DNA of 64,000 nucleotides from Rhodothermales bacterium (GTDB taxonomy: Bacteria; Bacteroidota; Rhodothermia; Rhodothermales; Bin80): the NCBI GenBank assembly GCA_963663495.1, contig OY760427.1, forward strand, positions 62,080 through 126,079, in the 5' to 3' direction. The translations under genes and the position numbers were made by a program. Under the pieces are notes generated by a model. It had not been told where the DNA came from. It made no database searches and saw only the letters and a list, made by a program, of their open reading frames with translations. This document shows positions 13,504 through 57,678 of the stretch, one piece after another; position 1 is the first letter of the stretch, and every line of letters starts with the position of its first letter.

Positions 13504-13587
13504 ATCCGTCCGGTGAAGTACATTATAAACGAGGGCATTTACTCTCTCAATTAGAGTAAGTTAGACCGCGATCCGAAGGTTAAATAG

Positions 13588-14670: not shown

Positions 14671-14742
14671 CCAAACGTAAGCGGTAACGTATCAAGCCAT
14701 CCGTACTCATGCGCATTCCGGGCATCGGTCAGCTACAATTGC

Positions 14743-15363: not shown

Positions 15364-15832
15364 AAATGCATGCAGAGGAGCAGTCATTTCCGATACTTCG
15401 GAGAAAATATCAGAAGACCGGTGCGCCTCGGCGATCTCGGCGTCCGTCAATCCCTCAATGATCTGCATCGGTGCGGCAGCACGCATCGCCCGGTCAAGCG
15501 GGTCCCTTAGGAAAAGGCTACTATGTTCGTTTGTCCTCTGCACAGCGCGAGCCACCCACTCGCCGAACAGGCTGTCGCCGCATCGGAGATGATGATCAAG
15601 AAAGCTTAGCGGAGCGCCGACGGTGAAGGTGTGGAGCCAAAGCGACACCTTGGCCAGCTCTACCGCCATTGGGATCTTATCAACACCGTAGACGCACCGC
15701 TTGAGCACCATGCGACGGATAATGTGCTGATCGTCAAGCTGATCCGTATTGTATGCCCGGCCCTTGTCCTCCGCGTTACCAATGATCTTATTGCGGATAG
15801 CGTCAATCCTCTCTGCAAGCGGAGAAATATAT
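15364..15832 (-). pseudogene. internal fragment of a type IIG / PglX-like N6-adenine DNA methyltransferase
   Basis: YISPLAERIDAIRNKI...RRMVLKRCVYGVDKIPMAVELAKVSLWLHTFTVGAPLSFLDHHLRCGDSLFGEW. It is bounded on both sides by outward-facing tnpB-unit left ends. Confidence 0.6.
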
Positions 15833-17298: not shown

Positions 17299-17314
17299 TT
17301 AAATAGGCTGGCGG
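17130..17314 (+). ncRNA. predicted omega (right-end) guide RNA of TnpB, scaffold plus flank-derived guide
   Basis: The call rests only on analogy with characterised TnpB elements, where the RNA overlaps the 3' end of tnpB and reads into the flank. The flank here is TTAAATAGGCTGGCGG. No conserved structure was verified. Confidence 0.3.
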
Positions 17315-25900: not shown

Positions 25901-26554
25901 ACGCTGGTACGCCGGGCGGGCGCGCGGCTGGGGTACGAGGCGGACGGATTCTGGCTGGGGATGAATGGCGGAATAGGGGTGAGCCGAGTTCGCGCGGGTC
26001 TGGAGGGATCGGTGACGTTGCAGGACATCTTGGAGCCGTATGTGGAGGCGGCGGTTTTGCACAGCGGCGGGGATGCGGAGAGAGGAATGGGAATGGAGGC
26101 AGGCGGAGGGGTACGGGTGCGGATGGGGATGTTGCATGCGGAGGTGATGTCAAGACGTTTGGTGTTGCATCAGGAGGATGGCTACGGGGAGTGGGGATAT
26201 TCGGGCATGGTCCGCTATGGCGGAATGGAGGGATTGGGAGCGCAGGTGCGACCGACCTGGGGTCGAACGCACGTGGGGACGCTGTGGCAGGCGGAGCGTC
26301 CGTGGGAGGTGTATCCGTCGGATCGTCGGATGGAGTTGGAGGTGGGGTACGGTTCGCGTGTTCACAGGCGCAGTGTGCTGCGGCCGCATGTGGGTATGGG
26401 GCTGCGTGACAGAGGCAGGGACTACCGCATAGGAGCGGGCGTGCAGGGGCGCACGGGGTTAGGATTTAGCGTGAGCGGATTGGCGATGGAGCACATGGCA
26501 CCATACCGACCGGTGAGCTACGGCGTGACTGTGAGTGGTTACGCGCGCTGGTGA
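19976..26554 (+). CDS. giant surface protein: Calx-beta and Calx-beta-like repeats with a C-terminal autotransporter-like beta-barrel
   Basis: 2192 aa. Repeated DY..V.G.L.F.PGE....I.VPI.DD...E..E.F Calx-beta signatures. About 12 repeats of about 108 aa. The C-terminal 330 aa (GERLSVWGRGAYSRL...GADYRTGGRWLMGMVISRSEA...VTVSGYARW) is barrel-like and ends in an aromatic residue. Confidence 0.88.
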   Translation: MKLIVLASVGVISKGGFDCRTVHVVLRCVVMQLGLLSALGIIQSVQGQDAAESRFAAPANEIEISTGSGPEEVAPRILSSQMVSIEASPQVRECPSVPGPIWREVREGTTCSIHYSCGGSRYGPYVYMHHVDGTAERGKDVLVTGPDSLLLRVVNGFRRAFIDDTYEALSDGIPEGDEELRCYCGKDRDGPVEGERGSPVRILDVDGWTVRDTMAMEADGFMPFLLEFQQPVARDLTIKFYTEDGTAIKGTDYTKWQGLVTVKQGDMSADIRVPILGDQIPEDTETFNLITHSGQFAGIPKQKAIGTIVEPHLVLDPSPLTVKEGGQATYTVALGTQPIGDVTVVITGYAGTDLILGKTSLTFTAVDWNNPQTVDMTALQDADAVNDTETLIHTASGAADYAGVKRDLRVTVTDFQVRLQVAPLLLDLEEGGSGKDFTVKLGSAPVGEDVTVAVSIPPWLAGKVSLSDDNLTFTSTDWDETQSVNVTAEEDADGIDEVGTLGLLASGGGYDGRTGNVDVIVADDEIVQLVIVPTRLSLEEGGSGKVFTVKLGSPAVGEDVMVAVSIPPGLAGKVSLSDDNLTFTSTDWDETQSVTVTGEDDGDADDEVGILGLLASGGGYDGQTGNVVVTVDDDEIVQLVVVPTRLSLEEGGSGKEFRVKLVSYPPAGEDVTVAVSIPPGLAGKVSLSDDNLTFTFADWYKNQSVTVTGEDDGDADDEAGTLGLLASGGGYNSPKYRVAVTVDDDETVQLVVAPLTVSLVEGGSGKEFKVKLGSSPPVGEDVMVTVSIPPELAGKVSLSVPHLNFTSSNWSTDQLVSVTVEDDADAGHETGTLGLAASGGGYDGINGRVSVDVTDDDTPGLRIEPIALTVVEGASRVYRVALETEPTGTVTVTIVSDNSDVTMVATPLTFTSGDWDTEQTVMVRAAEDADTDDDSATLMHTASGGDYDSLTGAVTVEVEDNGSSVGLVVSPTNLSVTEGTEEHFTVQLPAEPTQTVDVRITGDTGTDVMVNPRTLRYTPEDWSTPVTVRVRAEEDDDVMDASVQLILTASGGEYGGETEEVVVDVRDNDIPGIVLSDTELEIVEGDAESYTVRLMAEPSGTVIVTIASDNPEVTVSDASLTFTADDWYTPQAVTVLAHEDDDQDNDDATLVHRASGSDYDGVEEELTVMVLDDDEAGLVVRPQALSLDEGAAGKTFTVSLATPPSGQVTVTLSQEFALDGKVSVSSLGLTFTPADWDTDQTVMVTALDDADGSDEAGLVQLSASGGGYGGKSGAVKVKVTDADAPHSIDIEPSSVQVSEGAGPARFKVRLNRQSETAVTVRYTTHDESAHAGLDYLVPVTNMLAFETGGNLDKWIDVPILDDALHEGEETFTLVLTDAQGAELGNATGRATITDNDAAPTVSMVPAAYVREGGIANVYVSLSNASATPTGVLYSTSDVTATAGDDYEAVSAGSVTIEHGEMGAVIQVPTEDDALHEGREAFLVQLDGGGQTTVTILDNDRLPQLSIGDMTVSEDGGHAQLAVSLSDTSPVRVGVAFATQDGTAKAGADYTRTMGTLVFAPGEMVRHIWVPVARDDVVEDEEELVVKLSAPEHAMLLDAEGDVTIKDDPIEVSIYDGTETENSDELVMAVRLNYGSTKVVSVQFAVTGGTATSDVDYEATQGLVVFETGSTEAQVRIPLIDDDVQEGDETIEVTLSNPTNAQIGQAMATGTIVDDETAPGVQVRAIAVSQTEALFVVRLLAPVADRLTGRYRTVDGTAWAGEDYERMEGVLEFGPGETRKEVRVPLLRAQGTGEAFALMVELGDETVREDVVLGSKDTGNRARLGRSVAVHIVEAVSERMEGSLVGCMPRPFPGQRVRVSHLLSGCGMQAGGERLSVWGRGAYSRLQSGGVSGADVVTASLGADYRTGGRWLMGMVISRSEALEQEGTLLQMTGWYPYVRYGGMRHSVWGLAGAGQGVVAEAEDTGMRMMAAGVGGTLVRRAGARLGYEADGFWLGMNGGIGVSRVRAGLEGSVTLQDILEPYVEAAVLHSGGDAERGMGMEAGGGVRVRMGMLHAEVMSRRLVLHQEDGYGEWGYSGMVRYGGMEGLGAQVRPTWGRTHVGTLWQAERPWEVYPSDRRMELEVGYGSRVHRRSVLRPHVGMGLRDRGRDYRIGAGVQGRTGLGFSVSGLAMEHMAPYRPVSYGVTVSGYARW
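21220..22540 (+). repeat. four near-identical 324-nt (108-aa) in-frame tandem repeats inside the giant gene
   Basis: GATGAGATAGTGCAATTGGTA.TAGTTCCGACGAGGTTAAGCTTGGAGGAAGGGGGGTCCGGCAAGG recurs at about 21547 and 21871. Related units start at about 21220 and 22200. Confidence 0.85.
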
Positions 26555-26598
26555 GTGCTGGGCGATATGCCACACTAAAGGGGATGATGTCCGGGTAA

Positions 26599-27178
26599 CC
26601 TGCAATATTCATGTCGTCGCTTGTTTGGATCCAAAAGCGCTGTTTCGATACCTGCACGACCGATCGTGTGTTGTTCATGCGTAGGGACAGCCAGGAGAGG
26701 GGCTGGAGACGCCAGTTTAGGCCCTTTTCCCGACACGAGAGCGGTCATACTCGAGAGTTTGGTAAAACTTCTGTCGAGCAGACAAACCTCTGCCTACCTT
26801 CTTTTTCCGCGTTGGGCGCCTGCGGTGTCTGAGCGCAGGCACAAAGATGAATTGGTTAGCTCTTCAAGGGGAAGCGTGATCCATGTGAGTTGGCAATAAT
26901 GTCGCCAAAATCGCTTCCATGCAGCATATGATCACCCTCCAAATCAGGCCCCGCAAGCCCGTCAATCACATCGTTTCCTTTCGGACGCATCACATAACTC
27001 TCCACTGTTGAAGCCGGCGTCCATTTGGATAATGATCTTGTCAGCCAAATGTTCACGCGATGCCAGCACAATGCGTCGAATGAAACCATAGTGTTGTTCA
27101 CCAGGCACGGAGTGCCCCTCCCAATTCCGCCCCCAACATGTTGACCGTATCACCGCATATGGCGATAAGGGGCAGGAA
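26599..27178 (-). mobile_element. IS1380-family remnant D (3' tail kept, coding region mostly deleted)
   Basis: It starts with CCTGCAATATTCATG and is collinear with copy A, with large internal deletions. Homology ends near GGCGATAAGGGGCAG. Confidence 0.75.
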
Positions 27179-27296
27179 GGAGGTCGGAGCTTTGATGCGG
27201 AGCAGCGAAGCTCCGACCCCTTTCTGAACACAATTGTAACTGTCGTTCAGAGAAACAGTAGTTAACGTTGTTCAGCTTCCCTAGGCGCTGCACTGC

Positions 27297-43656: not shown

Positions 43657-44517
43657 CTATCGGTTCAGTAACGATGGATGCGTATAACTGCGAACAGGGC
43701 CGGTGCGAATGGTGGTGCGATACCATGTGACTTGGGGGAATCTGCTGTCAAGCCAGCAGCGGAGCAGATTTTCCGTATGTACCTCGGTTTCGTAATGACC
43801 GGCATTTATGAGGGCCATGCGTGCCTCACCACTCGTGCCCAAGACATCAAAGTACTGGTGATAGCGTATGTCCGCGGTCACGTACCCGTCGGCGCCGCGT
43901 GCCAGCGCTGTCGGGACCAGGTCGACTCCTGCACCGCCGCACACGGCTACAGTGTATACCGGTACCTGCAGGTTACCTGCATAGCGTAGTGAGGGAGATT
44001 CTAAGGCCGTGGCTACACGCTCAAGGAAATCCGCTAGGGGCACAGGTTGCGATAGCTGTCCGATTGCGCCATACCCTCCGTTAAACGCGGCCGACGGATC
44101 AAGGCATTGTACATCGTTCAATCCAAGTCTATGTGCCAGTGCTATGGACACGCCGTCCGGTGCGGCATCCAAGTTCGTGTGTATGCTGTACAACGCTATT
44201 TTCTCTTCCGCAAGCCGTAGCGCCAGACTTGCGGTAAAAGTGTCCGGCGTAAGCTGGCCTACGGGCCGAAACAATAGCGGATGGTGGGTTACAATGAGCG
44301 TGGCCCCTAAACGGATGGCTTCCTCTACGACCTGCGGTACCACATCCAGCGCAATGATACCGATACGAACCCGGCGATTGGGATCACCGACCTGCAGGCC
44401 CGAGTTGTCCCACGACGCAGCCATACCTGGAAGGGCCCAAGATTCCAGAGCTTCCGTTACTTCCCTAATGGTAGGATAGGATTGCCGCGGTATAGCTGTC
44501 AACGCTGGCACCTTCAA
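43657..44517 (-). CDS. Nif3-like dinuclear metal centre protein
   Basis: WDNSGLQVGD...LIVTHHPLLF...YSIHTNLDA...INAGHYETE motifs. Confidence 0.85.
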   Translation of the reverse strand: MKVPALTAIPRQSYPTIREVTEALESWALPGMAASWDNSGLQVGDPNRRVRIGIIALDVVPQVVEEAIRLGATLIVTHHPLLFRPVGQLTPDTFTASLALRLAEEKIALYSIHTNLDAAPDGVSIALAHRLGLNDVQCLDPSAAFNGGYGAIGQLSQPVPLADFLERVATALESPSLRYAGNLQVPVYTVAVCGGAGVDLVPTALARGADGYVTADIRYHQYFDVLGTSGEARMALINAGHYETEVHTENLLRCWLDSRFPQVTWYRTTIRTGPVRSYTHPSLLNR

Positions 44518-44704
44518 GGTTAGATGTGGTTATCCGTTTTTCGTCGTAGGCATGAAAATAGTAGTTCGCGCCAATGGGTTCCGCCGCTTACCGGTATCAA
44601 TTCTTCGGTCGCAGAATGAAGTGCGCGGTCTTCGGCTCAGGTCCATGGCCGGGCTGGTGCGGCGGGGCATCTTCCAGGAATGGCTATGGCTGTTATTTTG
44701 GGAA

Positions 44705-45310
44705 TTATATACGTGAGTGACCAACTGTACACAGTGAGGCACTAGTATCAATTTCACGGGTCATAGGGGTCGGTAACCCGAACGCCCCTCGCCGTGCAGA
44801 AGCCCCAATCCCGGAGGCCAGTATGTTTGCAGCCGCATTCAGGTCTGCATGATCCGTATGTCCACAGGACATACACGTGAATTTGCTCCGTGTCTTACGG
44901 TTACTCGCTTCTGTGTGCCCACACACAGAACACCGCTGACTGGTATAGGCAGCGGTAACCTTTATCACCTTGCGGCACTTATAGCCCAGCATCTGTTCCA
45001 GCTGGCCCCAACCTGTTCGCAGTATTCCACGGTTGAGGCCAGACTTCTGTCTGACGTTTGTGCCAAAGCTCTCCATCGTCCCCTCAGCTGAACGTGTCAT
45101 CGCTTTGATCTTTAGGTCCTCCAGTATCACCGTTGAGGAGCATTTGGCAATACTGCGACTTACCTGGTGGTTCGCATTCTTGAGGATGTTAGCACGCTTG
45201 CGCTGTATGCGGGCGATTCTATGCTTCCGCCTGTTACGACGGTTGGAGCCTTTCTTCTGTCTCGCCAGTCTTCGCTGATGCCGCTTCAACTTGGCATCAA
45301 GACGCTTGGT
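44705..45310 (-). pseudogene. tnpB: tnpB copy 2, C-terminal part
   Basis: ...KRLDAKLKRHQRRLARQKKGS... to the stop. It is almost identical to 16695-17293 and is cut at the left end of IS1380 copy B. Confidence 0.9.
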
Positions 45311-47165
45311 CCTCCCTTATTCATGAGGGAGTTAAGTGGCGGGGAATCGTCGTTTAATATTATGGTGTAATATGTTGACTATACACGGTTTGAATGGGAA
45401 CCTGTGCGACACTCAAACGTTCAGAAACCCCAATACCCATTCACCCTGTAACACACCCGATGCCAGATCCCAAATCCAACCTTCTGTTCGCTTGCCAGTT
45501 CAATAAATCCGTTAAAGTTGTACGCTCCAACACCGATAATCTAACATCGGATGCCGGCGTCATTCCTATGCGCCTGCTCATGGTGATCAGCACCTTGGCA
45601 TGCCGACTCGCTTCCGTGCTTAAGGACAATCGGTCCCAAGCTCGGATTACGCATAGCCTTGAGGAGTTAGTGCGGCAGTACCTGCTGCAACATGTGCAGG
45701 GGTGGGGACGTCAGTCAGATGCGGACAAGCTTCGAAGGGACCCCGCCATGCGCGTGGCCACTTCTTCCAAAAGGGGTATGGAGGCTTTACAGGACGATAG
45801 GTCCCTGGCATCCCAGCCAACCATGTCTCGCTTCGTGCGCATGTTGGCCGGGAAAAAGAATTTCGAGAAGTTGCGCCTTTTTGCAGAGACATTCGCCATG
45901 GAGCACCTGCTGCAGCGTGGTGGCGGGAAGCGCCGCCCCGAGGTGGTCTTTGATGTGGACGGTGTACCGGTAGATACGCATGGCAAGCAGCAGGGCAGCA
46001 AGTGGAACGTGTATTACAAGCGCACCATCTTTCTGCCCCTTATCGCCATATGCGGTGAGTCGGGCGACATGTTGGGGGCGGAGTTGCGAGGGGGCACGCA
46101 GAATGTGGTGAAGGACTGCTACGGTTTCATTCGATGCATTGGGCTGGCATTGCGTGAACATGTGGCCGACAAGGTCATTGTCCGATTGGACGCAGGCTTC
46201 AACAGTGGCGAGTTATGTGATAAGCTGGAGAACGACCGTATCGGCTATGTGATGCGTCTGAAAGGAAACGATGTGATTGACGGGCTTGCGGCGCCTCATT
46301 TGGAGGGTGATCAGCCGTCGGACGAATGCTACCACGAACTGCGCTACCGTGCAAAGTGCTGGTCCGTAGAGCGTCGTGTGGTGCTCGTGGTTGTTCCGGT
46401 GCCGGGAGAGCTTTTTCCGCGGCATTTCTATCTGATCACCGATCTGGATGTAGAAGCCTATCCGGCAGAGCAGCTTGTGAATCTGTACCGGAAGAGAGGA
46501 AAGGCGGAAAAGCACTTCGGGGAGCTGAATGCGGCTTGCTCCATGGCGCTGTCGTCGGTTCTCCGTCCGAAGACACACTATAAGGGCCGGCCTGTAGTGC
46601 GGGAGCCTGATGAGTCGGAGCAGGATGCCGAGATCCGAGCCGAGAACGAGGTTCTGCTACAGGTATACCTTCTAACGTATCAGCTCATGCATGTGGGGCG
46701 CTGCCTTATGCGGGAGCCTGACGAATCCCAGATAAGTCTGAGCACCTATCGCGAGCGTGTACTCAAGGTGGGGGCCCGCTTCGTACAACACGCGCGCAAC
46801 ATCGTTATCCACATTGCCGCCAGCGCAGATGCTGCATGGGAGCAATTTTGGCGACGTTATTGTCAACTCACATGGATCACGCTTCCCTTGAAGAGCTAGC
46901 CAAGTCATATTTGCGCCTGCGCTTCGACACCGCAGGCGCCCAACGCGGAAAGCGGAAAGCGAAGGTAGGCAGAGGTGTGTCTACCCGACAGACGTCTTCC
47001 CAAAATCTCGGTAATGTGACCGCTATCGAGTCGGGAAAAGGGCCTAAACTGGTGTTTTCAGCCCCTCTCATGGTCGTCCCTACGCATGAACAACGCACAA
47101 TCGGTCCTGCAGGTACCGAAACAGCACTTTTAGACCCGAACAGGGTACATCATGAATATTGCAGG
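45311..47165 (+). mobile_element. IS1380-family element, copy B (1855 bp, intact ORF)
   Basis: IRL is CCTCCCTTATTCATGA. IRR is TCATGAATATTGCAGG (reverse complement CCTGCAATATTCATGA). Confidence 0.88.
45394..46899 (+). CDS. IS1380-family DDE transposase (intact, 501 aa)
   Basis: VVFDVDGVPVDTHG..., VIVRLDAGFNSGE..., NLYRKRGKAEKHFGELN (Y-R-E-K region). It is a single uninterrupted frame, unlike copies A and C. Confidence 0.88.
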   Translation: MGTCATLKRSETPIPIHPVTHPMPDPKSNLLFACQFNKSVKVVRSNTDNLTSDAGVIPMRLLMVISTLACRLASVLKDNRSQARITHSLEELVRQYLLQHVQGWGRQSDADKLRRDPAMRVATSSKRGMEALQDDRSLASQPTMSRFVRMLAGKKNFEKLRLFAETFAMEHLLQRGGGKRRPEVVFDVDGVPVDTHGKQQGSKWNVYYKRTIFLPLIAICGESGDMLGAELRGGTQNVVKDCYGFIRCIGLALREHVADKVIVRLDAGFNSGELCDKLENDRIGYVMRLKGNDVIDGLAAPHLEGDQPSDECYHELRYRAKCWSVERRVVLVVVPVPGELFPRHFYLITDLDVEAYPAEQLVNLYRKRGKAEKHFGELNAACSMALSSVLRPKTHYKGRPVVREPDESEQDAEIRAENEVLLQVYLLTYQLMHVGRCLMREPDESQISLSTYRERVLKVGARFVQHARNIVIHIAASADAAWEQFWRRYCQLTWITLPLKS

Positions 47166-47168
47166 ATC

Positions 47169-48059
47169 ATGGACATCGTACGCATGTTCGACACGGAGCA
47201 GAAGGCGTACGATTGGCTGGCTCGCTACGTGTGGCCGAATGGCCCCGTGTGTCCGTTTTGCGGATCGGACAATGTGCAATCTGGAATCAAGCATCCGTAA
47301 ATGACGCATCGTTGCCGTGACTGTGCGAAGAAGAAGATGTTTACGCTCAAGACCGGTACGATAATGGCACGCTCCAAGCTGGACTACCAGACGTGAGCGA
47401 TTGCGGCGTATCTGATCGTAACGAACTTGAAGGGAATATCGAGCATGAAGATTCAGCGCGAGCTGAGTATCACGCAAAAGAGTGCTTGGCACCTGTTGCA
47501 TCGTTTGCGCAAGGCGTACAAAACCGGCAGCTTCAGTTTTCAGGGGCCGGTCGCAGTAGACAAAGCCTATTTCGGAGGCAAGGAAGCCAATAAGCACGCG
47601 AACAAAAAGCTGAACGCTGGACACGGTAGCGTAGGCAAAACCGCTGTTGTAGGCATGAAGGATCGGGGGACCGGCCAGATCAAAACCCAGGTCATTGCCG
47701 ATACGACGGCCAAGACGCTACAGGGCTTCGTACACGAGAATGTAGAGGAAAGACCGACCATCTACACGGACGATCACAAATCCCACACGGGCTTACCGAA
47801 GGACGATACCGTGCAGAATAGCGTTGGCGAGTACGTTAAGGGGCAGGCCCACATTAACGGTGTCGAAAGCTTCTGGGCAACGTTGAAGCGCGGCTATCAT
47901 GGCACGTATCACCAAATGAACAAACAGCACCTACACCGCTACGTATCTGAATTTGCAGGACGCCATAAGGCACGCGAACTCGATACGGAAGATAAAATGG
48001 GCAAGCTGATGGCGAACGGCAAAGGGAAGCAGTTGCGGCACCGAGACTTGGTGGGTTGA
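47169..48059 (+). pseudogene. second, divergent IS1595-family transposase gene with two in-frame stop codons; left end removed by IS1380 copy B
   Basis: MDIVRMFDTEQKAYDWLARYVWPNGPVCPFCGSDNVQSGIKHP-TAA-MTHRCRDCAKKKMFTLKTGTIMARSKLDYQT-TGA-AIAAYLIVTNLKGISSMKIQ... is all in one frame. The TAA is at 47298-47300 and the TGA at 47394-47396. Confidence 0.82.
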
Positions 48060-48085
48060 CTCTTGCAGGGCAGGTTGCACCGCCG

Positions 48086-48763
48086 TCAAGGTGGGTCCAT
48101 CGACACCAACTCTAGCAGCCTGTCTCTTAGTTCAATTCCTAGAACCCGACAAACCTGCTCTTCTTTAACACCATTCTCGTATGCACTTCTGCGAATATCT
48201 CTTTGCTCTTGATCTGAGTAATGTGTTTCATTCTCGGCGTACTTAAAGCTAAAATCCTGTATCTCGTATGCCTCAAGTCCCTGAACTTGCCCTTGAACGG
48301 CACTAGCAACTTTTACCGCCCATTCCAAGGCATTTATTTCTTTCGATATGGAACTGCCCAGATCGGTGAGACGAACAGGGTTTTGTCCTACGGAGACTTT
48401 AGGACAAATGCGTACAAAAATCTTTCCTATGTCATTGCGGATTTCCTTCAAGTCATCACGTACTTCTTCCATGAACTCCTTGAAGGATTTTCGGTCTGCA
48501 TCAACAGCGCCCTTCCACTCTCCAAAGCCTTTCAAGGCATTACGATCAGAATCAACCGCCCCTTTCCATTCTCCGAAACCCTTCAGAGCAGCCCGGTCTG
48601 CATTGACTGCACCTTTCCATTCCCCGAAATCAACATTCTCCTTTCGTATATCCCTTCTAAGGACCCATGCGGCGATAAATACGGCTATGATTGTGGCAAG
48701 GGCTGAGACTATAGCAACAATGATGGTGGGCTCAGTCCACACATTTGTGGTTTCTTGAATCAT
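48086..48763 (-). CDS. membrane-anchored protein with three 17-aa tandem repeats (FGEWKGAV..DR.ALKG) and an uncharacterised C-terminal domain
   Basis: 225 aa. N-terminal TM helix (IIVAIVSALATIIAVFIAAWVL), a 3x repeat, then SPVRLTDLG..ISKEINALEWA...AYEIQDFSFKYAEN...VLGIELRDRLL. The DNA here is visibly more AT-rich than its neighbours. Confidence 0.65.
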   Translation of the reverse strand: MIQETTNVWTEPTIIVAIVSALATIIAVFIAAWVLRRDIRKENVDFGEWKGAVNADRAALKGFGEWKGAVDSDRNALKGFGEWKGAVDADRKSFKEFMEEVRDDLKEIRNDIGKIFVRICPKVSVGQNPVRLTDLGSSISKEINALEWAVKVASAVQGQVQGLEAYEIQDFSFKYAENETHYSDQEQRDIRRSAYENGVKEEQVCRVLGIELRDRLLELVSMDPP

Positions 48764-48981
48764 GGCATCGGGGGGCTGCTGGGGTGGACATGCCGCGCAT
48801 TTTGTGCGGAATATGCACTAAGTAGTTCTTTATTACAAAGCATACTCGCGCGATGCATCACATGCCAAGCCGTATCCAAATACAAAAATAATGCATTTTG
48901 TTTCAAAATCGTACTATATTGAGCCTCGTGCAGAACCTCTGAATTGAAGAAATTGGCTGCATAATTTGACTCCGCTGGCAT
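48760..48981 (-). CDS. possible 73-aa upstream ORF coupled by an ATGA overlap (may instead be 5' UTR/promoter DNA)
   Basis: Its stop overlaps the downstream ATG (ATGA at 48760-48763). There is no recognisable domain, and the region also contains promoter-like motifs. Confidence 0.25.
   Translation of the reverse strand: MPAESNYAANFFNSEVLHEAQYSTILKQNALFLYLDTAWHVMHRASMLCNKELLSAYSAQNARHVHPSSPPMP
48883..48908 (-). promoter_or_regulatory. candidate Bacteroidota-type promoter (TTTG ... TAnnTTTG) for the 48086-48763 gene
   Basis: The minus strand reads GATTTTGAAACAAAATGCATTATTTTTGTATTTGG. TATTTTTG fits the TAnnTTTG -7 motif, and a TTTG lies upstream of it. Confidence 0.3.
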
Positions 48982-49029
48982 AGGATCACTTGTGGTATTT
49001 CTGGAGGGTTGCCGGTGCGGATTACAGCG

Positions 49030-49530
49030 TCTTTTTCGGGGGTTTTTCAGTTTCTACATGCTGCGGCAATATGTGCGCCCACGGCGAACAAGAAAGGGAC
49101 TGGAACCTCCTCATTGGTTATCTTCAAGTCTGATAAAAACGGAGAACAGAGGAGGTATCCATGTCCCTGTTCTCCGAGTTAAGCGGTTATTGGATTAGTT
49201 GCCAGCAGGAGCTTTTCCGTGGATGGAGGAAACGCTTGGTTCATTGGAGGGGCGTCACAAGAAGCTTCTATCGATTCTGGAGATGGTGCCTATTGAGCAA
49301 TTCTTAGTGCGCCAGGCTAACTCTGCCCAGTACTCACAAGAGTGACTTGACAACGGGCGCATTCAGGGCATCCGAAAGGCATGGCAAAGCGTCTTGCTCG
49401 TGGGTTTTGTTGCAAGTGAAGCGAAGTTCCTTGTAGTGGGTGGCCTGTTGTTGCCATTAACACCAAGTCTCGTGGTGTGTAGCAAGTAAGGTACGTCAAG
49501 GAAGGAACCCGCACGTGGCTGGCACGCACC
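49030..49530 (+). pseudogene. remnant (5' UTR and N-terminus) of a second IS5/IS1182-like element
   Basis: GGACTGGAACCTCC..., TTAAGCGG.T..TGGAT.A..TGCCA.C.GGAGCTTTT.CC and MEETLGSLEGRHKKLLSILEMVPIEQFL parallel the 5' end of the element at 27545-29334. It decays after about 30 codons. Confidence 0.6.
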
Positions 49531-49597
49531 GAGGGCGTGCGCCTTGGGCGGTGGAAGGGGAACGAAGCAACCGAGACTGCGGAGCGTACGGGTACCG

Positions 49598-51728
49598 CTA
49601 TGGCGGCGAACGCTCTACCCGGTCATAGAATGTTAATTCTTCATAGGCGATCGCTCGCATCTGCAGCCTTGCGTAGCCGCGCCACAGGATGGTGTGCCCC
49701 GGCGGCGGGTCATGCTTGCGGTTCATGTAGCCGCCCATCATCGCCACCAGCACGATCGCCGAAGCCAGATCTGTGTGTGCGGCAAGACTATAGTTGCGGG
49801 CATAGACCCGCATCATGTGCAGCTCTGCATCGGTGAACATCACCTCCGCTTCCATGTCGGCGGATACACGCCCCAACAAGGTCATCAGCATGATCCGCCA
49901 GGCTGTGACCATGTACAGTGTAATCGCCCGATGCAAGGCGTCCGCCTGCTGCATGCGCAGCTTCTCTATACGGCAGCCGCTCTTGAGAATCCGGAAGATG
50001 TCCTCTACACGCCAGCGCAGCGTGTAGTTTTCCACCATCTGCTTCGCTTCCTCCACGGTCGTCACCTCCACCGTGGTCAAAAGATACCACTCGATGCGAT
50101 CGGCGCCGTCCGGCGGCGCGGTCTCACGCATGTGGATCGCCGATACCGTTACCGGAGCTTCTGTAGAACCCTTCGGCGAAGGCAGCCTCACCCGGCGAAA
50201 ACGCAATTCCATCCGCGCCGTACGCGCTTCGCGGCCTTTGTACGTAACCCGACCCGACTTCGCCCGACGACTCAGACGCGTCACCGACAGCTCCAGCACA
50301 TCCGCTGCCGGCCCCTTACGCATCGCCTTGAATAGCCGATCCTGGTCCTTGCCCAGTCTCCGGTTATGCTTGGCCCGCACCAATACCTGCGTCCGCTTCA
50401 GCGTACGCTGCGCCGCAAAGAGCGCAAATATGTCCGCCTCCCGGTCCATCACGCACAGCACGCGTGTCTTGCGCGGCAGCGTCTCTGCAGCCTTGTCTAT
50501 GTCACGCAGCCCGTGTATCCATTGATGCGTCTTCGTTTCCTTTTCCTTCTTCCTGTACGCACAACACCGTATCCTGCGTACGCATCCGCTCGATCGTACG
50601 CTGACGGTGGGGCGCCAACATCTTCGCCGGCGTGATCCCGAACTGGTCCGCCTTCTCTATAAACCGCCAGTAGCCCCGTACCGCCGCAGGATCTCGCTCT
50701 GGTGTCGCCGTCACAGGCTTTCCCATCGCGTTGGCCACCAATGCGGCGCTCTTGACCAAACGGACGCTACGTCGCACATCTCCCAGCTCCGCAGCACCAA
50801 ACTCCTGCTGTGCCCACGTGGCTCTGCACAGCCCGGCGCCCACCTCCAGCCGGGGCCGCAATTCCACATCCGACACGCCCAGAAGCGTGCGCCACGCAGG
50901 CTCCAACTCATAGACCAATACCTTCTTCCGGGAAACCTGACCAGCACCGTTGGGAGCATGCCGGCCCCGCCCCTGGGTAACACCCAAATATCGGAAACCC
51001 ACCGCCCGAAAACACGTCCCTGTATGGTCCGGCCCCACAAACGTCTCCACGATGTACGGCACATAATCGTAGCGTTCCTCGAAATCGGAAACCAGACGCC
51101 GCAACACGCGACCCAGAGCGTAACTCGCCAGATTCTTGCACTGCACACCCGGACGAATCAGAAAACGGCTCAGGTTTACTATGCGGTGAAGCTGAGCACC
51201 TCGCTGCTCGTGGCTCCAGACCATCCACGCGTCCCGAGGCTTCAGATACAGGGCGGCGGCAGAAAAACCGACCGCACCCAGATAACCGTGTGCGCTCGTG
51301 ATCAGATAGCGCAACTGCGCCCCCGCAAACGTGGTCACCCCCTGCGGATGCTCCCGGTCCATGAGCGTGTTCCAGATGGCACGATCCTGCCTGCTCTCGA
51401 CCAGAACGATCTCCAAGTCCTCAATCTGGCGCACATCTTCGGGCATGTCCACCGCCTCCGATACCGGAGCATCCAACAGCCGGGGGCGGGAAACCGGAAC
51501 AGCACACTGCGGTGGTGGCAATGTAATCCGCCCTTCGGCTTCCAGCACCCGCAACGCCTTCATACACGTTGCCCGCTGCTCGCGGCCACGTGCATCAAAA
51601 AAGCCGAACTGCTCACACACCAAGACCCCGAGAGCCGACCGACTCTTGCCCTGGTGTGCCGCCACTGTTGCCGACAGGGTCGGCAACGCGCTGCGAAGCG
51701 TTGTCAGAATCCCACGCTGTGCCTCCAT
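49598..51728 (-). pseudogene. DUF4338 + Tn5-like (IS4-family) transposase, disrupted between the first and second catalytic Asp
   Basis: The N-terminal ORF has RIVNLSRFLIRPGVQCKNLASYALGRVLRRL...PYIVETFVGPDHTGTCFRAVGFRYLGVTQGRGR (DUF4338-like). The C-terminal ORF has MDREADIF...YTLRWRVEDIFRILKSGCRIEKL (Tn5-type YREK region). Only about 37 codons separate VLCVQ from DREAD, and the frame changes. Confidence 0.72.
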
Positions 51729-52092
51729 ACCGGTAACCTAAGCGGTATGGAGGCATTGTCAAGTCTTATTTGTGGCGATAGGGCAGGCCTAGCTCCAGAA
51801 ACCGACCAGATCATGCACACCAGACCCTCCGACGATATTGATGAGGGGGTTGTCCAATTATGAATTCTATGGCGACTCGTGAGTACAATGCCTAGGCTAC
51901 ACATCTGTTCTCGCCCCAAGTGCTGAATTCAACTGCTGCGACGCAATCTCTTAACATTCTTCTTTATGGGTCGGAGGAGTTGAATCGCGCCATCATATGG
52001 CACTCATGGCTGCCATACTGGCGGTATACGCAAATGGCATGATTATTGTGTAGAAGTGTTCTAGTATCACACAAACAAACAGTGTAGAGCAA

Positions 52093-52302
52093 ATGAAAAA
52101 AGCGATATTCCAGATGTTCCAGTCAAAGAAGGCCATCGCTATGTTGGTCGGATTAGTTGTGGCAGTTGGCGGCCACTTGGGGTTAAACCTTGATCCAGAT
52201 GCCTTGACAACAATTCTTGCACCGGTTCTGGCCTACATCGTGGGCCAAGGCGTAGCGGATCACGGAAAAGAAAAGGCCCGAATGGAAAAAACCGACGCCT
52301 GA
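52093..52302 (+). CDS. 69-aa two-helix membrane protein, function unknown
   Basis: KKAIAMLVGLVVAVGG and ILAPVLAYIVGQGV hydrophobic segments. ATG with an upstream purine-rich stretch. Confidence 0.4.
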   Translation: MKKAIFQMFQSKKAIAMLVGLVVAVGGHLGLNLDPDALTTILAPVLAYIVGQGVADHGKEKARMEKTDA

Positions 52303-52699
52303 CAAGCAAAATCTTCAGAGGCGGCGCTATAGTCAGGCCGGCGCAATTCCGCAACACTCATAGCCAACTGTTGTTAGGAAGGGTATAATCATATTACGTC
52401 CTTAAGCAGTGGCTGTAAATGCGATTTAAGTAGCGCTTGCCAGAAGATGCAATTTTCGACTGAGTTGGACTCAGGGATGAGAATTGTGTGCTCATGTGTC
52501 AGGTCAATGCGGGGTTTGTGCGCATTGACGGGGTCTATTCTGGCGTTGGGAGCCCAAAGTCTTGGTGTCACGGTGCCCATGAGCGACGGGAGGAGATAGG
52601 TTGCCCCCGCCCGCAACAGGTTACTTGAATTTGCAGCTAAGTTCGGTTGAAGGAGCCGCTACGCCGCGCGCTTGCGGGCGGCATGCCATCGTATTTTTC

Positions 52700-53172
52700 G
52701 CCTCTCCTTCGCTCGCAGTATCAGCCCAAGGCGGTGCATGTTGGCCGTTACTATTACCAGGGCGACAGTTCGGACAAATCCTTCCTCGCCATGGGTTCGA
52801 ATCAGAGATAGCCCCCGCTGATTATCCCGGTAGGGACCCGGGTTTCCCCGGGCCCCCGGACAGATCCACGCATGCGCGCTAACGCATGTGGCTCCTCGTT
52901 CGGGTCGCACCGACGTGCGGGACGGAAAATCGCGTAGCGGGCCATGGGTGTCTGATCTGCAGCTTTGGCCAATGTCGTGCAGCGAGCTTGTCCATCGTCT
53001 CCCACGTTGTACGGTCCCGTTGGGATCGTCGTCGAAGAAGGCGCATCCATATCCAATTAAACCGCCTGTAGCCCATGTCCCGCGACAGCAGGTCGTGCAA
53101 GCGTATCAGCGATCCGACCTTCTAAAGCGCCGAGCCGAAGTGCTCCAGGCGTGGAGCAACTACATCACATAG
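52700..53172 (+). pseudogene. decayed C-terminal fragment of a P4-type tyrosine integrase
   Basis: Frame-hopping pieces ...HGCLICSFGQC.. (HG.RS.FR.W-like) and ...AHVPRQQVVQAYQRSDLLKRRAEVLQAWSNYI*, which is a typical integrase C-terminus. Confidence 0.5.
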
Positions 53173-53206
53173 CGAAACGCCGCCTACCGGTGGCGCCCAA
53201 TCCCCT

Positions 53207-54469
53207 TCACTCGGAACCCTCGGTTCCCAATAGCCTCTTGATTCGCTTGACCAAGCGCGTCCTTCTCGCACGGTAAAACTCGCCGAACCCGGTCATTTCT
53301 TCGGGCACGGAGCCCAGCAGGTGATCGCGAACATGCGACCTTCGCCTGCTTTCGTCAGGATACGCCCGAGCCAACCATTCAAGCGGCATGGTTGCACTCT
53401 TCTCAGTGTTCACCGGGCCCGGCAAGAGTTGGAGGTTGCCGAGTCGATCCGCTCGCTCGCGGAATCCTTCGATCTGCTCCTCGGCGATATGCGCATCTCG
53501 CAGCTTGGACGTGCTGAACTTCGCGAACGGGAAGATGTGGTCCACATGAAACAGCTTCCCCGGATCCACGAAGGGGAAGATGAGCGAGAGAAGAGCGAAC
53601 GCTCGTGAACTGAAATAATCCGTGTCCGCCAGTTCTTCGACTTCCTCATCGTTGAACACGAGTTCCCGTCCCCGACGGGCCATCTCCTCGCCAAGCCGGG
53701 CGGCGGGGAACCCCTGGGTCGCGTCTTCGCGGATCACCTTCCTCAGCGCCGTGAGCAAGGTGTCGAGGCCACTCCCCCAGACACCGCCCTTCAGCAGGCT
53801 GCGGATCAGCCACCCTCGAATCCTCTCCCGGTCGTCCTCATGCCTGCTGTGACTGAGGAATGACTCCGCATGCTTGTTCCGGTGCAGATAGTAGGCGATG
53901 GGCAGAATGGCGTTGTGCGCGGTTAGCGTTGCCCGGCTAAGACCGAAGCCCGCGACCAACTGCACTGTCAACGTCAGCGCCGACTTGACGGACGTCCACT
54001 GCTCCTCGAGAACCTCCATGTTCTTGCGATTGAAGTTGTCTACCTTGAATCCCACGCTCCCGATGTCGCTCAACATCAGCCCAGCCTTGAGGACTAGGTC
54101 CTTCGAGAAGGTGAACCCCAATCCGATCCGGTTGAGCGCGTCGACGAGTTTGTGAATCTCCTCACGCGCATCGTGCGTGTTCCATTGCGCCACGGCGATC
54201 GACAGCAGCAGGTCGGAGTGAGAGAGGGGGGTGCCGCCGTCATTCATGCGAATGAAGATCTGGACGACATCGTCCATTATCTGTCTCCGCTCTTCGTAGT
54301 ACGCCACCATGTGCTCCTTGCGAATCACGCTGTGAAGCCGGTCGAGTGTCTGATAGGCATCGTCCACGAACCGCTGGTCGAGGTGCCTGTTCAGCCACCG
54401 CACCATCGGCGGACCACCGTCCATCGACAACACATCCCTCACGGGGAACCAGCATTCGGCACCGTTGCC
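53207..54469 (-). pseudogene. GmrSD-like (DUF262/DUF1524) type IV restriction-type nuclease, 5'-truncated by IS1380 copy C
   Basis: IFIRMNDGGTPLSHSDLLLS (end of DUF262). C-terminal HVDHIFPFAKF...NLQLLPGPVNTEKSA (DUF1524 His-Me finger-like). The reading frame runs open into the IS boundary at 54470. Confidence 0.68.
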
Positions 54470-56334
54470 CCTCCCTTATTCATGAGGGAGTTAAGTGGCG
54501 GGGAATCGTCGTTTAATATTATGGTGTAATATGTTGACTATACACGGTTTGAATGGGATCCTGTGCGACGCTCAAACGTTCAGAAACCCCAATACCCATT
54601 CACCCTGTAAAACACCCGATGCAAGATCCCAAGTCCAACCTTCTGTTCGCTTGCCAGTTCAATAAATCCGTTAAAGTTGTACGCTCCAAGACCGATAATC
54701 TAACATCGGATGCCGGCGTCATTCCTATGCGCCTGCTCATGGTGATCAGCACCTTGGCATGCCGACTCGCTTCCGTGCTTAAGGACAATCGGTCCCAAGC
54801 TCGGATTACGCATAGCCTTGAGGAGTTAGTGCGGCAGTTACTGCTGCAACATGTGCAGGGGTGGGGACGTCAGTCAGATGCGGACAAGCTTCGCAGGGAC
54901 CCCGCCATGCGCGTGGCCACTTCTTCCAAAAGGGGTATGAGGGCATTACAGGACGATAGGTCCCTGGCATCCCAGCCAACCATGTCTCGCTTCGTGCACA
55001 TGTTGGCCGGGAAAAAGAATTTCAAGAAGTTGCGCCTTTTTGCAGAGACATTCGCCATGGAGCACCTGCTGCAGCGTGGTGGCGGGAAGCGCCGCCCCGA
55101 GGTGGTCTTTGATGTGGACGGTGTACCGGTAGATACGCATGGCAAGCAGCAGGGCAGCAAGTGGAACGGATATTACAAGCGCACCATCTTTCTGCCCCTT
55201 ATCGCCATATGCGGTGAGTCGGGCGACATGTTGGGGGCGGAATTGCGAGGGGGCACGCAGAATGTGGTGAAGGACTGCTACGGTTTCATTCGACGCATTG
55301 GGCTGGCATTGCGTGAACATGTGGCCGACAAGGTCATTGTCCGATTGGACGCAGGCTTCAACAGTGGCGAGTTATGTGATAAGCTGGAGAACGACCGTAT
55401 CGGCTATGCGTCTGAAAGGGAACGATGTGATTGACGGGCTTGCGGCGCCTCATTTGGAGGGTGATCAGCCGTCGGACGAATGCTACCACGAACTGCGCTA
55501 CCGTGCAAAGTGCTGGTCCGTAGAGCGTCGTGTGGTGCTCGTGGTTGTTCCGGTGCCGGGAGAGCTTTTTCCGCGGCATTTCTATCTGATCACCGATCTG
55601 GATGTAGAAGCCTATCCGGCAGAGCAGCTTGTGAATCTGTACCGGAAGAGAGGAAAGGCGGAAAAGCACTTCGGGGAGCTGAATGCGGCTTGCTCCATGG
55701 CGCTGTCGTCGGTTCTCCGTCCGAAGACACACTATAAGGGCCGGCCTGTAGTGCGGGTGCCTGATGAGTCGGAACAGGATGGGTCGGAACAGGATGCCGA
55801 GATCCGAGCCGAGAACGAGGTCCTGCTACAGGTATACCTTCTAACTTATCAGCTCATGCATGTGGGGCGCTGCCTTATGCGGGAGCCTGACGAATCCCAG
55901 ATAAGTCTGAGCACCTATCGCGAGCGTGTACTCAAGGTGGGGGCCCGCTTCGTACAACACGCGCGCAACATCGTTATCCACATTGCCGCCAGCGCAGATG
56001 CTGCATTGGAGCAATTTTGGCTACGTTATTGTCAACTCACATGGATCACGCTTCCCATGAAGAGCTAGCTAAGTCAAATTTGTGCCTGCGCTCCAACACC
56101 GCAGGCGCCCAACGCGGAAAGCGGAAAGAGAAGGTAGGCAGAGGTGTGTCTACCCGACAGACGTCTTCCCAAAATCTCGGTAATGTGACCGCTATCGAGT
56201 CGGGAAAAGGGCCTAAACTGGTGTTTTCAGCCCCTCTCATGGTCGTCCCTACGCATGAACAACGCACAATCGGTCCTGCAGGTACCGAAACAGCACTTTT
56301 AGACCCGAACAGGGTACATCATGAATATTGCAGG
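54470..56334 (+). mobile_element. IS1380-family element, copy C (1865 bp, frameshifted)
   Basis: Same ends as copy B. Relative to copy B it has a 4-nt deletion near 55405 and a 15-nt tandem duplication (GGTCGGAACAGGATG) near 55775. Confidence 0.88.
54553..56068 (+). pseudogene. IS1380-family transposase, frameshifted
   Basis: ORFs 54553..55434 and 55298..56068 together cover the 501-aa protein of copy B. Confidence 0.88.
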
Positions 56335-56984
56335 TTGGTATCCGGTTGTCTGATAATGCTTGTATCGCCCTCTGTGGAGACCATAGCGATCTGCCCGCAA
56401 TTACGGTCAATGCCTACAGCACTGCCGGTATCCTCTATTACAGGTGCCTCAATCTTGTAGCAGATGACAGCATACCCTCTGCCGGCGTTCTTCTTTACAG
56501 TGGCTTTGATGGGTATACCATCAGGGTACGGGTTGCCTCCCCGCCTGCGGAGCGCCATATATCCCACTTTCGGGATATACAGCTTGCCATCCCGAACCCT
56601 TACGTTATCCGGGATCGTGAACGAAGGCGTACTACCACGTCTGGAATGGAATCTCGGTCTTCTCTTACCTTCCTTGAAGAATGCCTTCCATGCATCCGCC
56701 TGATATTTCAATGTGTATCTAACGACACCAAAGGAGTATTCAGGTAGCCACTCGACCGTACGGCGCAGTGCCGTGAACCGCTTCCCCAGCGAGAAGAAGC
56801 TTACCGAGGGCGGCTTCTCTCCAGCCTCTTTCGCTTTCTTGTAGGCCTCGCTCTGCTCTGCGAGGATGGCATTCCACACAAACCTACACGCACCCGCTAA
56901 TCCAGCAAGTTGCTTGGCGTTACTTCGACTTCCGGGCAACAGCCTGTATGTAATATTGCGGTATGCACTAACCGTTTCGGGCAT
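56335..56984 (-). pseudogene. tnpB: tnpB copy 2, N-terminal part
   Basis: MPETVSAYRNITYRLLPGSRSN...IIRQPDT, near-identical to 16043-16692. It is cut at the right end of IS1380 copy C. Confidence 0.9.
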
Positions 56985-57219
56985 GGCACTGTGATATATA
57001 ACTCCCTAATATATGAAAATTATATTCCACGCGTACCCACGTGTTGAGTTATTTGAAATAATTGCATTGTTTTCGTGAAAAGCGGGAACCGATTATGAAC
57101 AACTGGCGAAAGCCATCCTGTCTGCACCACCAAAGCACAATAAGTAACTCCTGCGAAAACGCGTGGCACTCAGCCATATAACTCCCGTTATTTTCTATTG
57201 ATTAGCCTTGGGTGGCAAC

Positions 57220-57678
57220 ATGAAAATAGTCGTGAGCGCTGATGAGCATCTTCCGCTGGTAGATATGATCCTTGGTGAGTTGCACAGGAGGGGCCATGAA
57301 ATACGGTACTTCGGACCAAAATGCGGCGAGCCAGCGCAGGACTGGCCGGTGGTGACCAGAGAGGCAGTGCAGTGCGTGGGCTCCGGCTCCGCAAGTCAGG
57401 CCATTGTTCTCTGCTGGACAGGTACCGGTTGTTCCATTGTTGCCAACAAGATTCCCGGGATCCGGGCTGCGCTCTGCTCTGATGCCGAGACGGCACGCGG
57501 TGCGCGGCGCTGGAACGACGCTAACGTGTTGGCGCTGAGCCTGCGGGCTACTTCTGAGGCAGTCTTGAAGGAGATCCTAGATCAGTGGTTCTCAACGGAA
57601 CCGGATGCCGATGACTGGAACAGGGTGCAGCTTCAGCGCCTGGCGGTCATGGATACCAACGTGCCTCCACAGCCGTAA
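57220..57678 (+). CDS. rpiB: ribose-5-phosphate isomerase B
   Basis: MKIVVSADEH...CWTGTGCSIVANK...ARRWNDANVLAL, the LacAB/RpiB pattern. Confidence 0.85.
   Translation: MKIVVSADEHLPLVDMILGELHRRGHEIRYFGPKCGEPAQDWPVVTREAVQCVGSGSASQAIVLCWTGTGCSIVANKIPGIRAALCSDAETARGARRWNDANVLALSLRATSEAVLKEILDQWFSTEPDADDWNRVQLQRLAVMDTNVPPQP

Follow-up and report, generated by a model that had tools for sequence, protein, structure and literature searches.

A tnpB gene on IS1595-type ends: putative non-autonomous elements in a Rhodothermales bacterium and in other bacterial genomes

The 64-kb stretch of DNA analyzed here (the window; part of contig OY760427.1 of a Rhodothermales bacterium) is rich in insertion sequences and contains two 1.47-kb units in which tnpB is the only gene and whose inverted-repeat ends begin GGGA(G/A)TTATAT. 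Copy 1 (15833-17298, plus strand, 1466 bp) was delimited by repeat analysis and sequence reading; it is intact, with the ends GGGAGTTATATGGCTGA... and ...TCACGTATATAATTCCC. Copy 2 lies on the minus strand in two parts, a 5′ part (56335-57186) that is 99% complementary to 15884-16692 and a 3′ part (44700-45310) that is 99% complementary to 16688-17298. It is broken at 45310/45311 and 56334/56335 by a composite transposon of ~11 kb (45311-56334, plus strand), which lies outside the tnpB unit proper, is flanked by a 5-bp duplication of tnpB sequence (ACCAA) and consists of two direct IS1380-family copies (45311-47165 and 54470-56334) around 7.3 kb. Rejoined, copy 2 measures 1.46 kb, shares 98% identity with copy 1 and contains an open reading frame; the two copies differ at 20 positions and by one 8-nt tandem duplication. 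An earlier reading of this DNA, made from the letters alone (the sequence-only reading), had described copy 2 as a unit running from 44700 to 57186 in minus orientation. The outer ends and the orientation hold, but instead of one 12.5-kb unit there is a 1.46-kb unit split by the IS1380 composite. “Left” and “right” in that reading, as in this text, follow tnpB orientation, which for copy 2 is the reverse of the plus strand.

The tnpB open reading frame (ORF) of copy 1 (16043-17293, plus strand) codes for a protein of 416 aa, in which Pfam recognizes HTH_OrfB_IS605, OrfB_IS605 and Cas12f1-like_TNB. The protein scores 246 bits against the NCBIfam model guided_TnpB (NF040570, cut-off 100), stays below the cut-offs of IS200_TnpB (189 vs 425) and IS607_TnpB (96.6 vs 350), and aligns to the ISDra2 TnpB structures 8H1J/8EXA with an E-value of ~1e-23. 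The RuvC residues D193, E279 and D371 and the four cysteines of the CxxC...CxxC zinc finger are invariant in 20 full-length relatives that are 45-77% identical to it. A full-length ORF is kept in 20 of the 28 units checked and is truncated in the other 8. Judged by these residues, the TnpB of the window looks like an active nuclease.

On the plus strand, copy 2 starts with GGGAATTATATACGTGA (44700) and ends with ...TCAGCCATATAACTCCC (57186), whose reverse complement is GGGAGTTATATGGCTGA. The two ends agree at 13 of 17 and at 16 of 20 positions, which reproduces the imperfect terminal inverted repeats of the sequence-only reading (13/17); the chance of at least 13 matches out of 17 at fixed positions is 1.2e-5. 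Directly outside these ends is a perfect 8-bp direct repeat, GTTATTTT (AAAATAAC in tnpB orientation), at 44692-44699 in the right flank and at 57187-57194 in the left flank (57187-57195 with the next base, a C on the plus strand). As had been claimed, it is situated in the spacer between a NIF3-family gene (43657-44517, minus strand) and rpiB (57208-57678, plus strand); between two fixed 8-mers, a match of this kind has a chance of 1.5e-5. In copy 1, the right terminal inverted repeat (17275-17298, minus strand; read inward, GGGAATTATATACGTGAGTGACCA) holds the last tnpB codons and the stop: the TAA occupies 17291-17293 and the tip is at 17298, so that 5 nt are left over, just as the earlier reading had it. 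A scan of the window with the motif GGGRNTTATAT retrieved 12 matches against 4.3 expected, a number reached in 0 of 100 shuffles; seven exact matches and one with a single mismatch (the inner repeat at 16021, described below) all sit at element ends. That the terminal similarity and the 8-bp repeat are products of chance has only the shortness of the motifs in its favor. Given the two probabilities above, the result of the scan with 8 matches at element ends, and the recurrence of the pattern in 41 other insertions, we regard chance as a negligible explanation.

The other insertions come from a search with the TnpB protein, one genome per species, which returned 71 loci, all in metagenome-assembled genomes (MAGs); the 52 loci with both ends recognizable form the set of units in which ends and duplications were counted. 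Identity to the TnpB of the window is 77% in Rhodothermales, ~60% in Paracoccaceae (where there are dozens of tnpB-unit copies per genome), ~53% in Arenicellales and 44-48% in other Gammaproteobacteria. Complete MAG chromosomes with many copies include OY759767.1 and OZ219799.1. The 52 units are tnpB-only and measure 1.27-1.56 kb where uninterrupted, and their TnpBs are 45-77% identical to that of the window. All 52 have inverted repeats of ~22-26 nt of a common type, beginning GGG(G/A)NTTATA. Duplications of 8 bp are perfect in 34 units, with 34 different A/T-rich 8-mers, and match at 7 of 8 positions in 7 more. In 16 of 18 representatives, the right repeat includes the tnpB stop, at a distance of 13-29 nt from the tip. 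The closest relative, L001, is 1273 bp long, with a perfect duplication and with its left repeat 31 nt upstream of the start of the tnpB match. The recurring ends and duplications indicate that this architecture is a stable property of the whole TnpB clade and not an accident of the window. The independent insertions in other genomes thus agree with what the sequence-only reading had proposed, a non-autonomous IS1595-type element with tnpB as its sole gene. The same holds for three particulars that it had named: 8-bp duplications are present at other copies; no fixed motif of 4-5 nt, as in IS605 behavior, abuts the element, the single fixed flank base being a G that stands 9 nt off; and within the duplicated boundaries a unit of 1.27-1.56 kb with an ORF of ~1.25 kb has no room for a Y1 or serine recombinase partner, an exclusion that concerns the interiors of the units.

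Two further observations concern individual loci. At L065 (2943-3535), a 593-bp internally deleted derivative of a tnpB unit has repeats that match at 22/22 positions, the duplication AAACAAAT and a G at position -9 (the base directly 5′ of the left duplication in tnpB orientation); here the tnpB unit itself has given rise to a miniature element. A 2026-bp group II intron occurs at L009 (778-2803), also at L008, L010, L011, L016 and L023, and in inverted form at L053 (4250-6278) and L064 (4113-6143). It matches Rfam group-II-D1D4-6 with 130.9 bits and has, by eye, a 446-aa reverse-transcriptase/maturase-like ORF. The intron sits between nucleotides 1 and 2 of the left repeat or, when inverted, at the tip of the right repeat, and the 5′ exon on its own strand is always the repeat read outward. 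It appears to home into the tips of IS1595-type ends, and an invaded end should be disabled for transposition. The seeming absence of duplications in L008-L011, L016 and L023 is due to the presence of the intron in the repeat tip.

Copy 1 has a neighbor with related ends, the IS1595-family element A (13588-15363, plus strand), a candidate transposase source or the relic of one. Element A matches Pfam DDE_Tnp_IS1595 (E 5e-38) and the NCBIfam IS1595 transposase model (191.6 bits, cut-off 75); its transposase ORF occupies 13918-14670, with the N-terminal zinc-ribbon part upstream in another frame. The ends of the tnpB unit align to both ends of A. The element starts with GGGAGTTATATAGCTGACTTCCCACGCGTT, and over 90 nt its right end shares 94% identity with the start of the tnpB unit (repeat family D6), which bears out the earlier statement that the ends of the tnpB unit are common to the IS1595 element at 13588. 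By eye, the region at ~14700-14900 of A contains the apparent C-terminal end of a C5 cytosine methyltransferase (...GNAVPIPV...), and just upstream of A a 259-nt fragment of its transposase gene (13243-13501) lies inverted, 96% complementary to 14245-14503.

The 5′ module of copy 1 (15833-16012, plus strand, 180 nt; defined by repeat families D6/D14, alignment and sequence) is an IS1595-derived miniature element. It corresponds to the reverse complement of the left ~80 nt of A joined to the right 90 nt of A, with a degenerate inner end (...ATAATTATC), that is, to an inverted, internally deleted IS1595 element, and it abuts a minimal tnpB element. The 8-nt tandem duplication that distinguishes the copies (TTATTGTG, 15876-15883) lies in this module of copy 1 and is missing from copy 2. 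Eight nucleotides after the module, directly before the tnpB ATG, an inner left inverted repeat begins (16021-16042, plus strand), which reads GGGAGTTGTATATCACAGTGCC in copy 1 and GGGAGTTATAT... in copy 2. From this inner repeat (16021) to the tip (17298) extends a minimal tnpB element of 1278 bp, to be compared with the 1273 bp of L001. The inner repeat and the miniature module together point to an ancestral tnpB element of ~1278 bp, like L001, and the present unit would be a fusion whose outer ends now serve for its movement.

No duplication belongs to copy 1 alone; the 8-bp duplication TTAAATAG (13580-13587, with a G before it at 13579, and 17299-17306) flanks the whole of 13588-17298, which comprises element A, a 469-bp spacer (15364-15832, minus strand) and the tnpB unit. 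The spacer keeps an earlier left flank of the unit, cggaG followed by AAATATAT; by eye, it resembles a fragment of a large gene on the minus strand (N6-adenine DNA methyltransferase or type IIG restriction), truncated at either end by one of the two elements. Separate insertion of A and of the tnpB unit as the source of TTAAATAG was rejected because neither has a matching flank of its own. The simplest reading is that A, spacer and tnpB unit moved jointly, by means of the outer left end of A and the tnpB-proximal end. Such a joint move with one shared duplication provides indirect evidence that one transposase recognizes both end types.

Transposase-bearing relatives were collected by a metagenome scan with an IS1595 transposase alignment, which retrieved 80 loci. 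Fifteen distinct elements of 1.7-4.2 kb among them have the common end type, with arms matching at 21-22 of 22 positions and perfect 8-bp duplications, and begin GGG(A/G)ATTA(T/C)A, like the tnpB units. Their cargo includes N6/N4 DNA methyltransferases, methyltransferase-Mrr and methyltransferase-HNH fusions, an HsdM-like protein and a staphylococcal-nuclease homologue (examples among L072-L151 are L088, L092, L108, L116 and L132; another is L063:959-2380), so restriction-modification or nuclease-type genes ride ends that are common with tnpB. No TnpB homologue was found by tblastn in any of the 80 IS1595-transposase loci. Conversely, tblastn placed an IS1595 transposase at most 3 kb from tnpB at only 2 of the 71 loci: in L063, it belongs to a separate element, and for L069, the proximity alone was recorded. 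None of the loci examined has an element with both a transposase and tnpB between one simple end pair. It follows from this linkage that the tnpB units are non-autonomous and that tnpB is one of many cargoes on such ends. Since the unit encodes tnpB and no IS1595-type DDE transposase (zinc ribbon plus ISXO2-like domain), it can be a member of the IS1595 family in the non-autonomous sense only, and we infer that it is mobilized in trans by an IS1595 transposase.

Taken together, these data make it probable that the 1.3-1.5-kb unit is a non-autonomous IS1595 member in which tnpB has replaced the transposase as the sole gene. In the first step of the mechanism that we propose, which is well supported and is read from the anatomy of the units, an IS1595-type DDE transposase made elsewhere in the genome would bind the ~24-nt terminal inverted repeats and insert the unit at A/T-rich 8-mers by an 8-bp staggered cut, with any suitably oriented pair of ends being usable. 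This last property would explain the fusion of the miniature element with tnpB, the TTAAATAG-flanked composite and the GTTATTTT-flanked copy 2. One may ask whether an ordinary tnpB of the IS200/IS605 type (IS1341 group) has instead inserted by chance into an IS1595-derived miniature element, in which case repeats and duplication would be features of that miniature element alone. In the window, the first 180 nt of the unit do constitute such a miniature element, and ISDra2 TnpB is among the nearest solved structures. Yet, both in the window and in 16 of 18 relatives, the tnpB stop or last codons fall within the right repeat, the 1273-bp L001 has its left repeat 31 nt upstream of the tnpB match together with a perfect duplication, and the architecture recurs in 41 insertions and persists at protein identities as low as 45%; furthermore, no separate IS605-type ends fit inside the unit, and the protein falls below both the IS200_TnpB and the IS607_TnpB cut-offs given above. 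In addition, the tnpB units possess the inverted repeats and the duplication whose absence defines IS200/IS605 and IS607 elements. We consider chance insertion of this kind very improbable.

The last ~220 nt of 18 diverse units are strikingly conserved at the nucleotide level (alignment A3). RNAalifold predicts 28 base pairs here, 15 of them with compensatory changes. In the 3′ domain, pair counting found 94.3% of cells to be paired and two-sided changes in 13 of 18 pairs; these values were reached in 0 of 500 shuffles, and partners that were slid along the alignment paired in 34-49% of cells. Folds of single sequences agree; they also show a terminal hairpin, with its 3′ arm in the inverted repeat, followed by the invariant tip ...TATAA(G/T)(T/C)CCC. 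In the window, the predicted omega-RNA-like scaffold spans 17180-17298 (plus strand), overlapping the 3′ end of tnpB and running into the right repeat; its parts are the covarying helices at ~17180-17243, the terminal hairpin and the invariant tip. The conserved structure is found where the guide-RNA scaffold of a TnpB is expected, and the unit leaves no non-coding space for one elsewhere.

In the second step of the proposed mechanism, for which the covariation and the conserved catalytic residues argue, TnpB would act as an active RuvC nuclease with a guide-RNA scaffold that is predicted to be encoded in the last ~120-150 nt of the tnpB ORF and to end in the right inverted repeat. Read-through beyond the tip would yield a guide made of the 8-bp duplication and the downstream flank. 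With the scaffold placed within the 3′ end of the ORF and the right repeat, this stretch would be at once coding sequence, transposase binding site and RNA scaffold, and the right end, uniting protein tail, transposase site and RNA, would be a compact case of overlapping codes. A different view is that TnpB is inert cargo or a domesticated TldR-like regulator that is carried passively and has no part in the spread of the unit. Related IS1595 elements do bear assorted cargo, and the ORF is truncated in 8 of 28 units. However, 20 full-length copies preserve the RuvC triad and the zinc finger without exception, unlike the nuclease-dead TldR, a covarying RNA structure is present where the omega RNA is expected, and the G at -9 is specific to tnpB units. 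A passive role thus seems improbable to us.

The base at -9 is a G in all 41 units with a duplication matching at 7 or more of 8 positions and in 10 of 11 units without a duplication. All events in the window conform: 57195 for copy 2, where the C of the plus strand is this G in tnpB orientation, 13579 for the composite and 15824 for the earlier left flank of copy 1, the respective contexts being ataG before AAAATAAC, aagG before TTAAATAG and ggaG before AAATATAT. In the transposase-bearing relatives, G is found at -9 in 4 of 15 elements and C at +9 in 3 of 15; the difference between 41/41 and 4/15 is significant (Fisher exact p = 9e-9). The base at +9, after the right duplication, is unconserved in the tnpB units (G in 14, C in 12, T in 9 and A in 6). 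In the window, the G tracks tnpB orientation irrespective of which IS1595 end type, left or right, makes up the far end. We rejected a 9-bp duplication, and likewise a G that is part of the element: the right end terminates in C, and each site has a different 8-mer. A longer motif was rejected as well, with positions -10 to -13 giving only a weak G/C excess at -10.

In an unoccupied site, the G at -9 directly precedes the 8-mer and the right flank, which is the position of the target-adjacent motif (TAM) for a guide taken from the right flank. We therefore propose as a hypothesis that the invariant G is the 3′ base of a minimal TAM. As the third and hypothetical step of the mechanism, the TnpB complex would cut empty alleles, recognized as G plus target, and would spare the occupied site because the target there is preceded by ...TCCC; such cutting would favor retention or homing of the unit. 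Tentatively, and with slightly less than even confidence, we suggest that TnpB and its guide RNA are functionally coupled to the IS1595 transposon through a one-base TAM, such that only insertions beside a G are kept or driven. Covered by the same tentative estimate is a stronger version, according to which the TnpB complex, bound to the right end, takes part in selecting where and in which orientation the unit integrates.

Alternatively, the G may reflect the targets preferred by the transposase, or by the transpososome half-site that holds the tnpB-proximal end, and be unrelated to TnpB targeting. The geometry would allow this: with an 8-bp stagger, the G adjoins the bond attacked by the tnpB-proximal end, the 3′-OH of the right end attacking between the G and the first base of the duplication. 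The duplicated 8-mers, moreover, are equally A/T-rich in tnpB-bearing and transposase-bearing elements, which indicates that most of the target choice is that of the transposase, and the comparison set has no partner transposases from the genomes of the tnpB units themselves. Opposed to it are the background frequencies at both positions in the 15 transposase-bearing elements, the one-sided G of L032, L040 and L068, whose left and right repeats are identical, and the normally symmetric target preferences of DDE transposases. On balance, we find a preference of the transposase or of the right end rather unlikely, though a serious contender, as the source of the G.

Several observations weigh against the proposal of a trans-mobilized tnpB unit coupled to its guide RNA. 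The sole IS1595 copy with matching ends in the window, element A, has a transposase split by a +1 frameshift in a G run at ~13856-13860, which separates the zinc ribbon from the DDE domain and may be a true mutation or a homopolymer sequencing error; the tnpB-proximal repeat, moreover, matches the ends of A at only ~16/20 positions. The second IS1595-type gene in the window (47301-48053) is only 52% identical and has a stop codon in frame, and the motif scan of the window shows no terminal motif of the tnpB-unit type near it. An empty-site allele for copy 2 was not found, exact-protein look-ups of RpiB (with two start codons) and of TnpB having come back blank; likewise, metagenome contigs gave no match to a 28-mer across the reconstructed empty junction. 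Many of the 52 units derive from a few Paracoccaceae MAGs, and the 15 transposase-bearing elements used for comparison were drawn from other metagenomes, where the transposases may differ in their target preferences. An Rfam search over the tnpB unit gave matches at chance level only and no known RNA family. Finally, a TAM of one base is unusually short for TnpB, and a benefit from retention or homing alone does not obviously predict 41 of 41.

The remaining features of the window concern the interrupting transposon and its relatives. The IS1380-family copy at 45311-47165 is intact, with a 501-aa ORF, and that at 54470-56334 is frameshifted. The cargo between them includes the second IS1595-type transposase gene, pieces of a Tn5-like transposase, a DruA-like domain (50502-51728) and a weak GmrSD-like ORF (53207-54442) with Pfam scores under the gathering cut-offs. 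A third IS1380-family copy, inverted and with the duplication TTTAG, is located at 18033-19885, and a degenerate partial fourth one, 83-96% identical in pieces, at 26597-27184. An ORF of 2192 aa between them (19976-26554) contains four tandem repeats of ~330 nt (21257-22552), which are 64-90% identical to the first.

TnpB, from which Cas12 descends, is a compact nuclease for genome editing. To our knowledge, only in IS200/IS605 and IS607 is its biology understood in detail; there, the existence of TnpB is explained by scarless excision and a TAM defined by the transposase. A whole TnpB clade that is stable on IS1595-type ends in three bacterial classes widens the range of carriers and raises the question of what use a guide-RNA nuclease is to a cut-and-paste element that leaves a double-strand break and makes duplications; pipelines that tag every TnpB as “IS200/IS605 family” mislabel these elements. 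The one-sided G suggests that nuclease targeting is coupled to a borrowed transposon. If this is true, the units would show how an RNA-guided homing nuclease adapts to a transposase almost without target specificity and would be a bacterial counterpart of Fanzor-bearing cut-and-paste elements. Should the TAM truly be one base, the enzyme would have an unusually relaxed targeting range, of possible use in editing.

As to known carriers, the ends of the tnpB unit (GGnnnTTATAT) and its 8-bp duplication fit what we take to be the ISNwi1-like subgroup of ISfinder, and the end consensus presumed for ISNwi1, ggnnatTAT, fits GGGAGTTATAT. The IS1595 family was reportedly divided by Siguier, Gagnevin and Chandler in 2009, with ISNwi1 and ISNwi1+ among its subgroups. 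ISNwi1 elements have GGnnnTTAT ends, inverted repeats of ~20-25 nt and 8-bp duplications, and their transposase of ~300 aa combines an N-terminal zinc ribbon with an ISXO2-like DDE domain; the “+” members carry passenger genes. The tnpB unit differs from both in being devoid of any transposase and in having an RNA-guided nuclease as its passenger.

The sequence-only reading had named IS200/IS605 and IS607 as the only prokaryotic homes of TnpB, a statement that is outdated. The main text of Altae-Tran et al. (PNAS 2023, PMC10691335) describes six TnpB branches associated with DDE transposases (DDE-1 to DDE-6) and inverted terminal repeats, solo TnpBs flanked by the ends of transposase-bearing elements, and a tnpB 3′ end at most 250 bp from an end in most cases examined. 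A 2026 review names ISL2, IS630 and IS1031 as DDE families that carry TnpB (PMC13565253). As for the association with IS1595, of which that reading was aware of no description, TnpB in DDE transposons with inverted repeats was reported in 2023; IS1595 is named neither in the main text of PMC10691335 nor in PMC13565253, and we found no paper that links TnpB to IS1595-family names. The DDE-associated TnpBs resemble those described here in lying within symmetric terminal inverted repeats, in having the tnpB 3′ end near one end (here 5-29 nt) and in occurring as solo TnpBs, which implies mobilization in trans (PMC10691335). They differ in the carrier, here IS1595, a distinction drawn from that main text, so that the present clade may coincide with one of DDE-1 to DDE-6. 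The present clade also appears to be wholly non-autonomous, its ORF enters the repeat, and an invariant G stands 5′ of the duplication; we came across no description of these three features in the literature as far as it was covered, with that paper represented by its main text.

In the classical account, tnpB-only elements are without inverted repeats or duplications (PMC3627910, PMC13565253), and the insertion of IS200/IS605-type elements occurs immediately 3′ of a motif of 4-5 nt, which is also the TAM (PMC13565253, PMC3627910). The IS1341-type and other IS605/IS607 TnpBs, such as that of ISDra2, share with those described here the protein family, the domain order and the intact RuvC domain, as well as a structured RNA over the 3′ end of the gene with a guide expected from the right flank. 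Their elements, however, have hairpin ends with no repeats or duplications, whereas here there are repeats and an 8-bp duplication, and in place of an abutting motif there is one conserved G, parted from the element by the duplication.

Among solved structures, Cas12n (RdCas12n, PDB 9J09) is the second-best match and the best natural one; the RuvC half of the window TnpB aligns to it with E 1e-25, with an insertion in common. The protospacer-adjacent motifs (PAMs) of Cas12n are short and purine-rich, 5′-AAN, with AAG for AcCas12n (PMC12216341). Cas12n differs in being CRISPR-associated and not transposon-borne, and the PAM parallel is to be taken as a lead only.

Another parallel is offered by eukaryotes and viruses, in which Fanzor1 and some Fanzor2 proteins are carried by cut-and-paste transposons (Bao and Jurka 2013, PMC3627910; Yoon et al. 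2023, PMC10711439). As in the tnpB units, a TnpB homologue lies within inverted repeats and duplications are generated (PMC3627910, PMC10711439); bases of the repeat are inside the guide-RNA scaffold (predicted in our case), the duplication is adjacent to or in the guide, and non-autonomous copies keep the nuclease gene intact. Merlin, the eukaryotic counterpart of IS1595, is not among the Fanzor carriers listed in PMC3627910. The tnpB units differ from the Fanzor elements in being bacterial, in the compact size of their TnpB and in belonging, as we propose, to the IS1595 superfamily.

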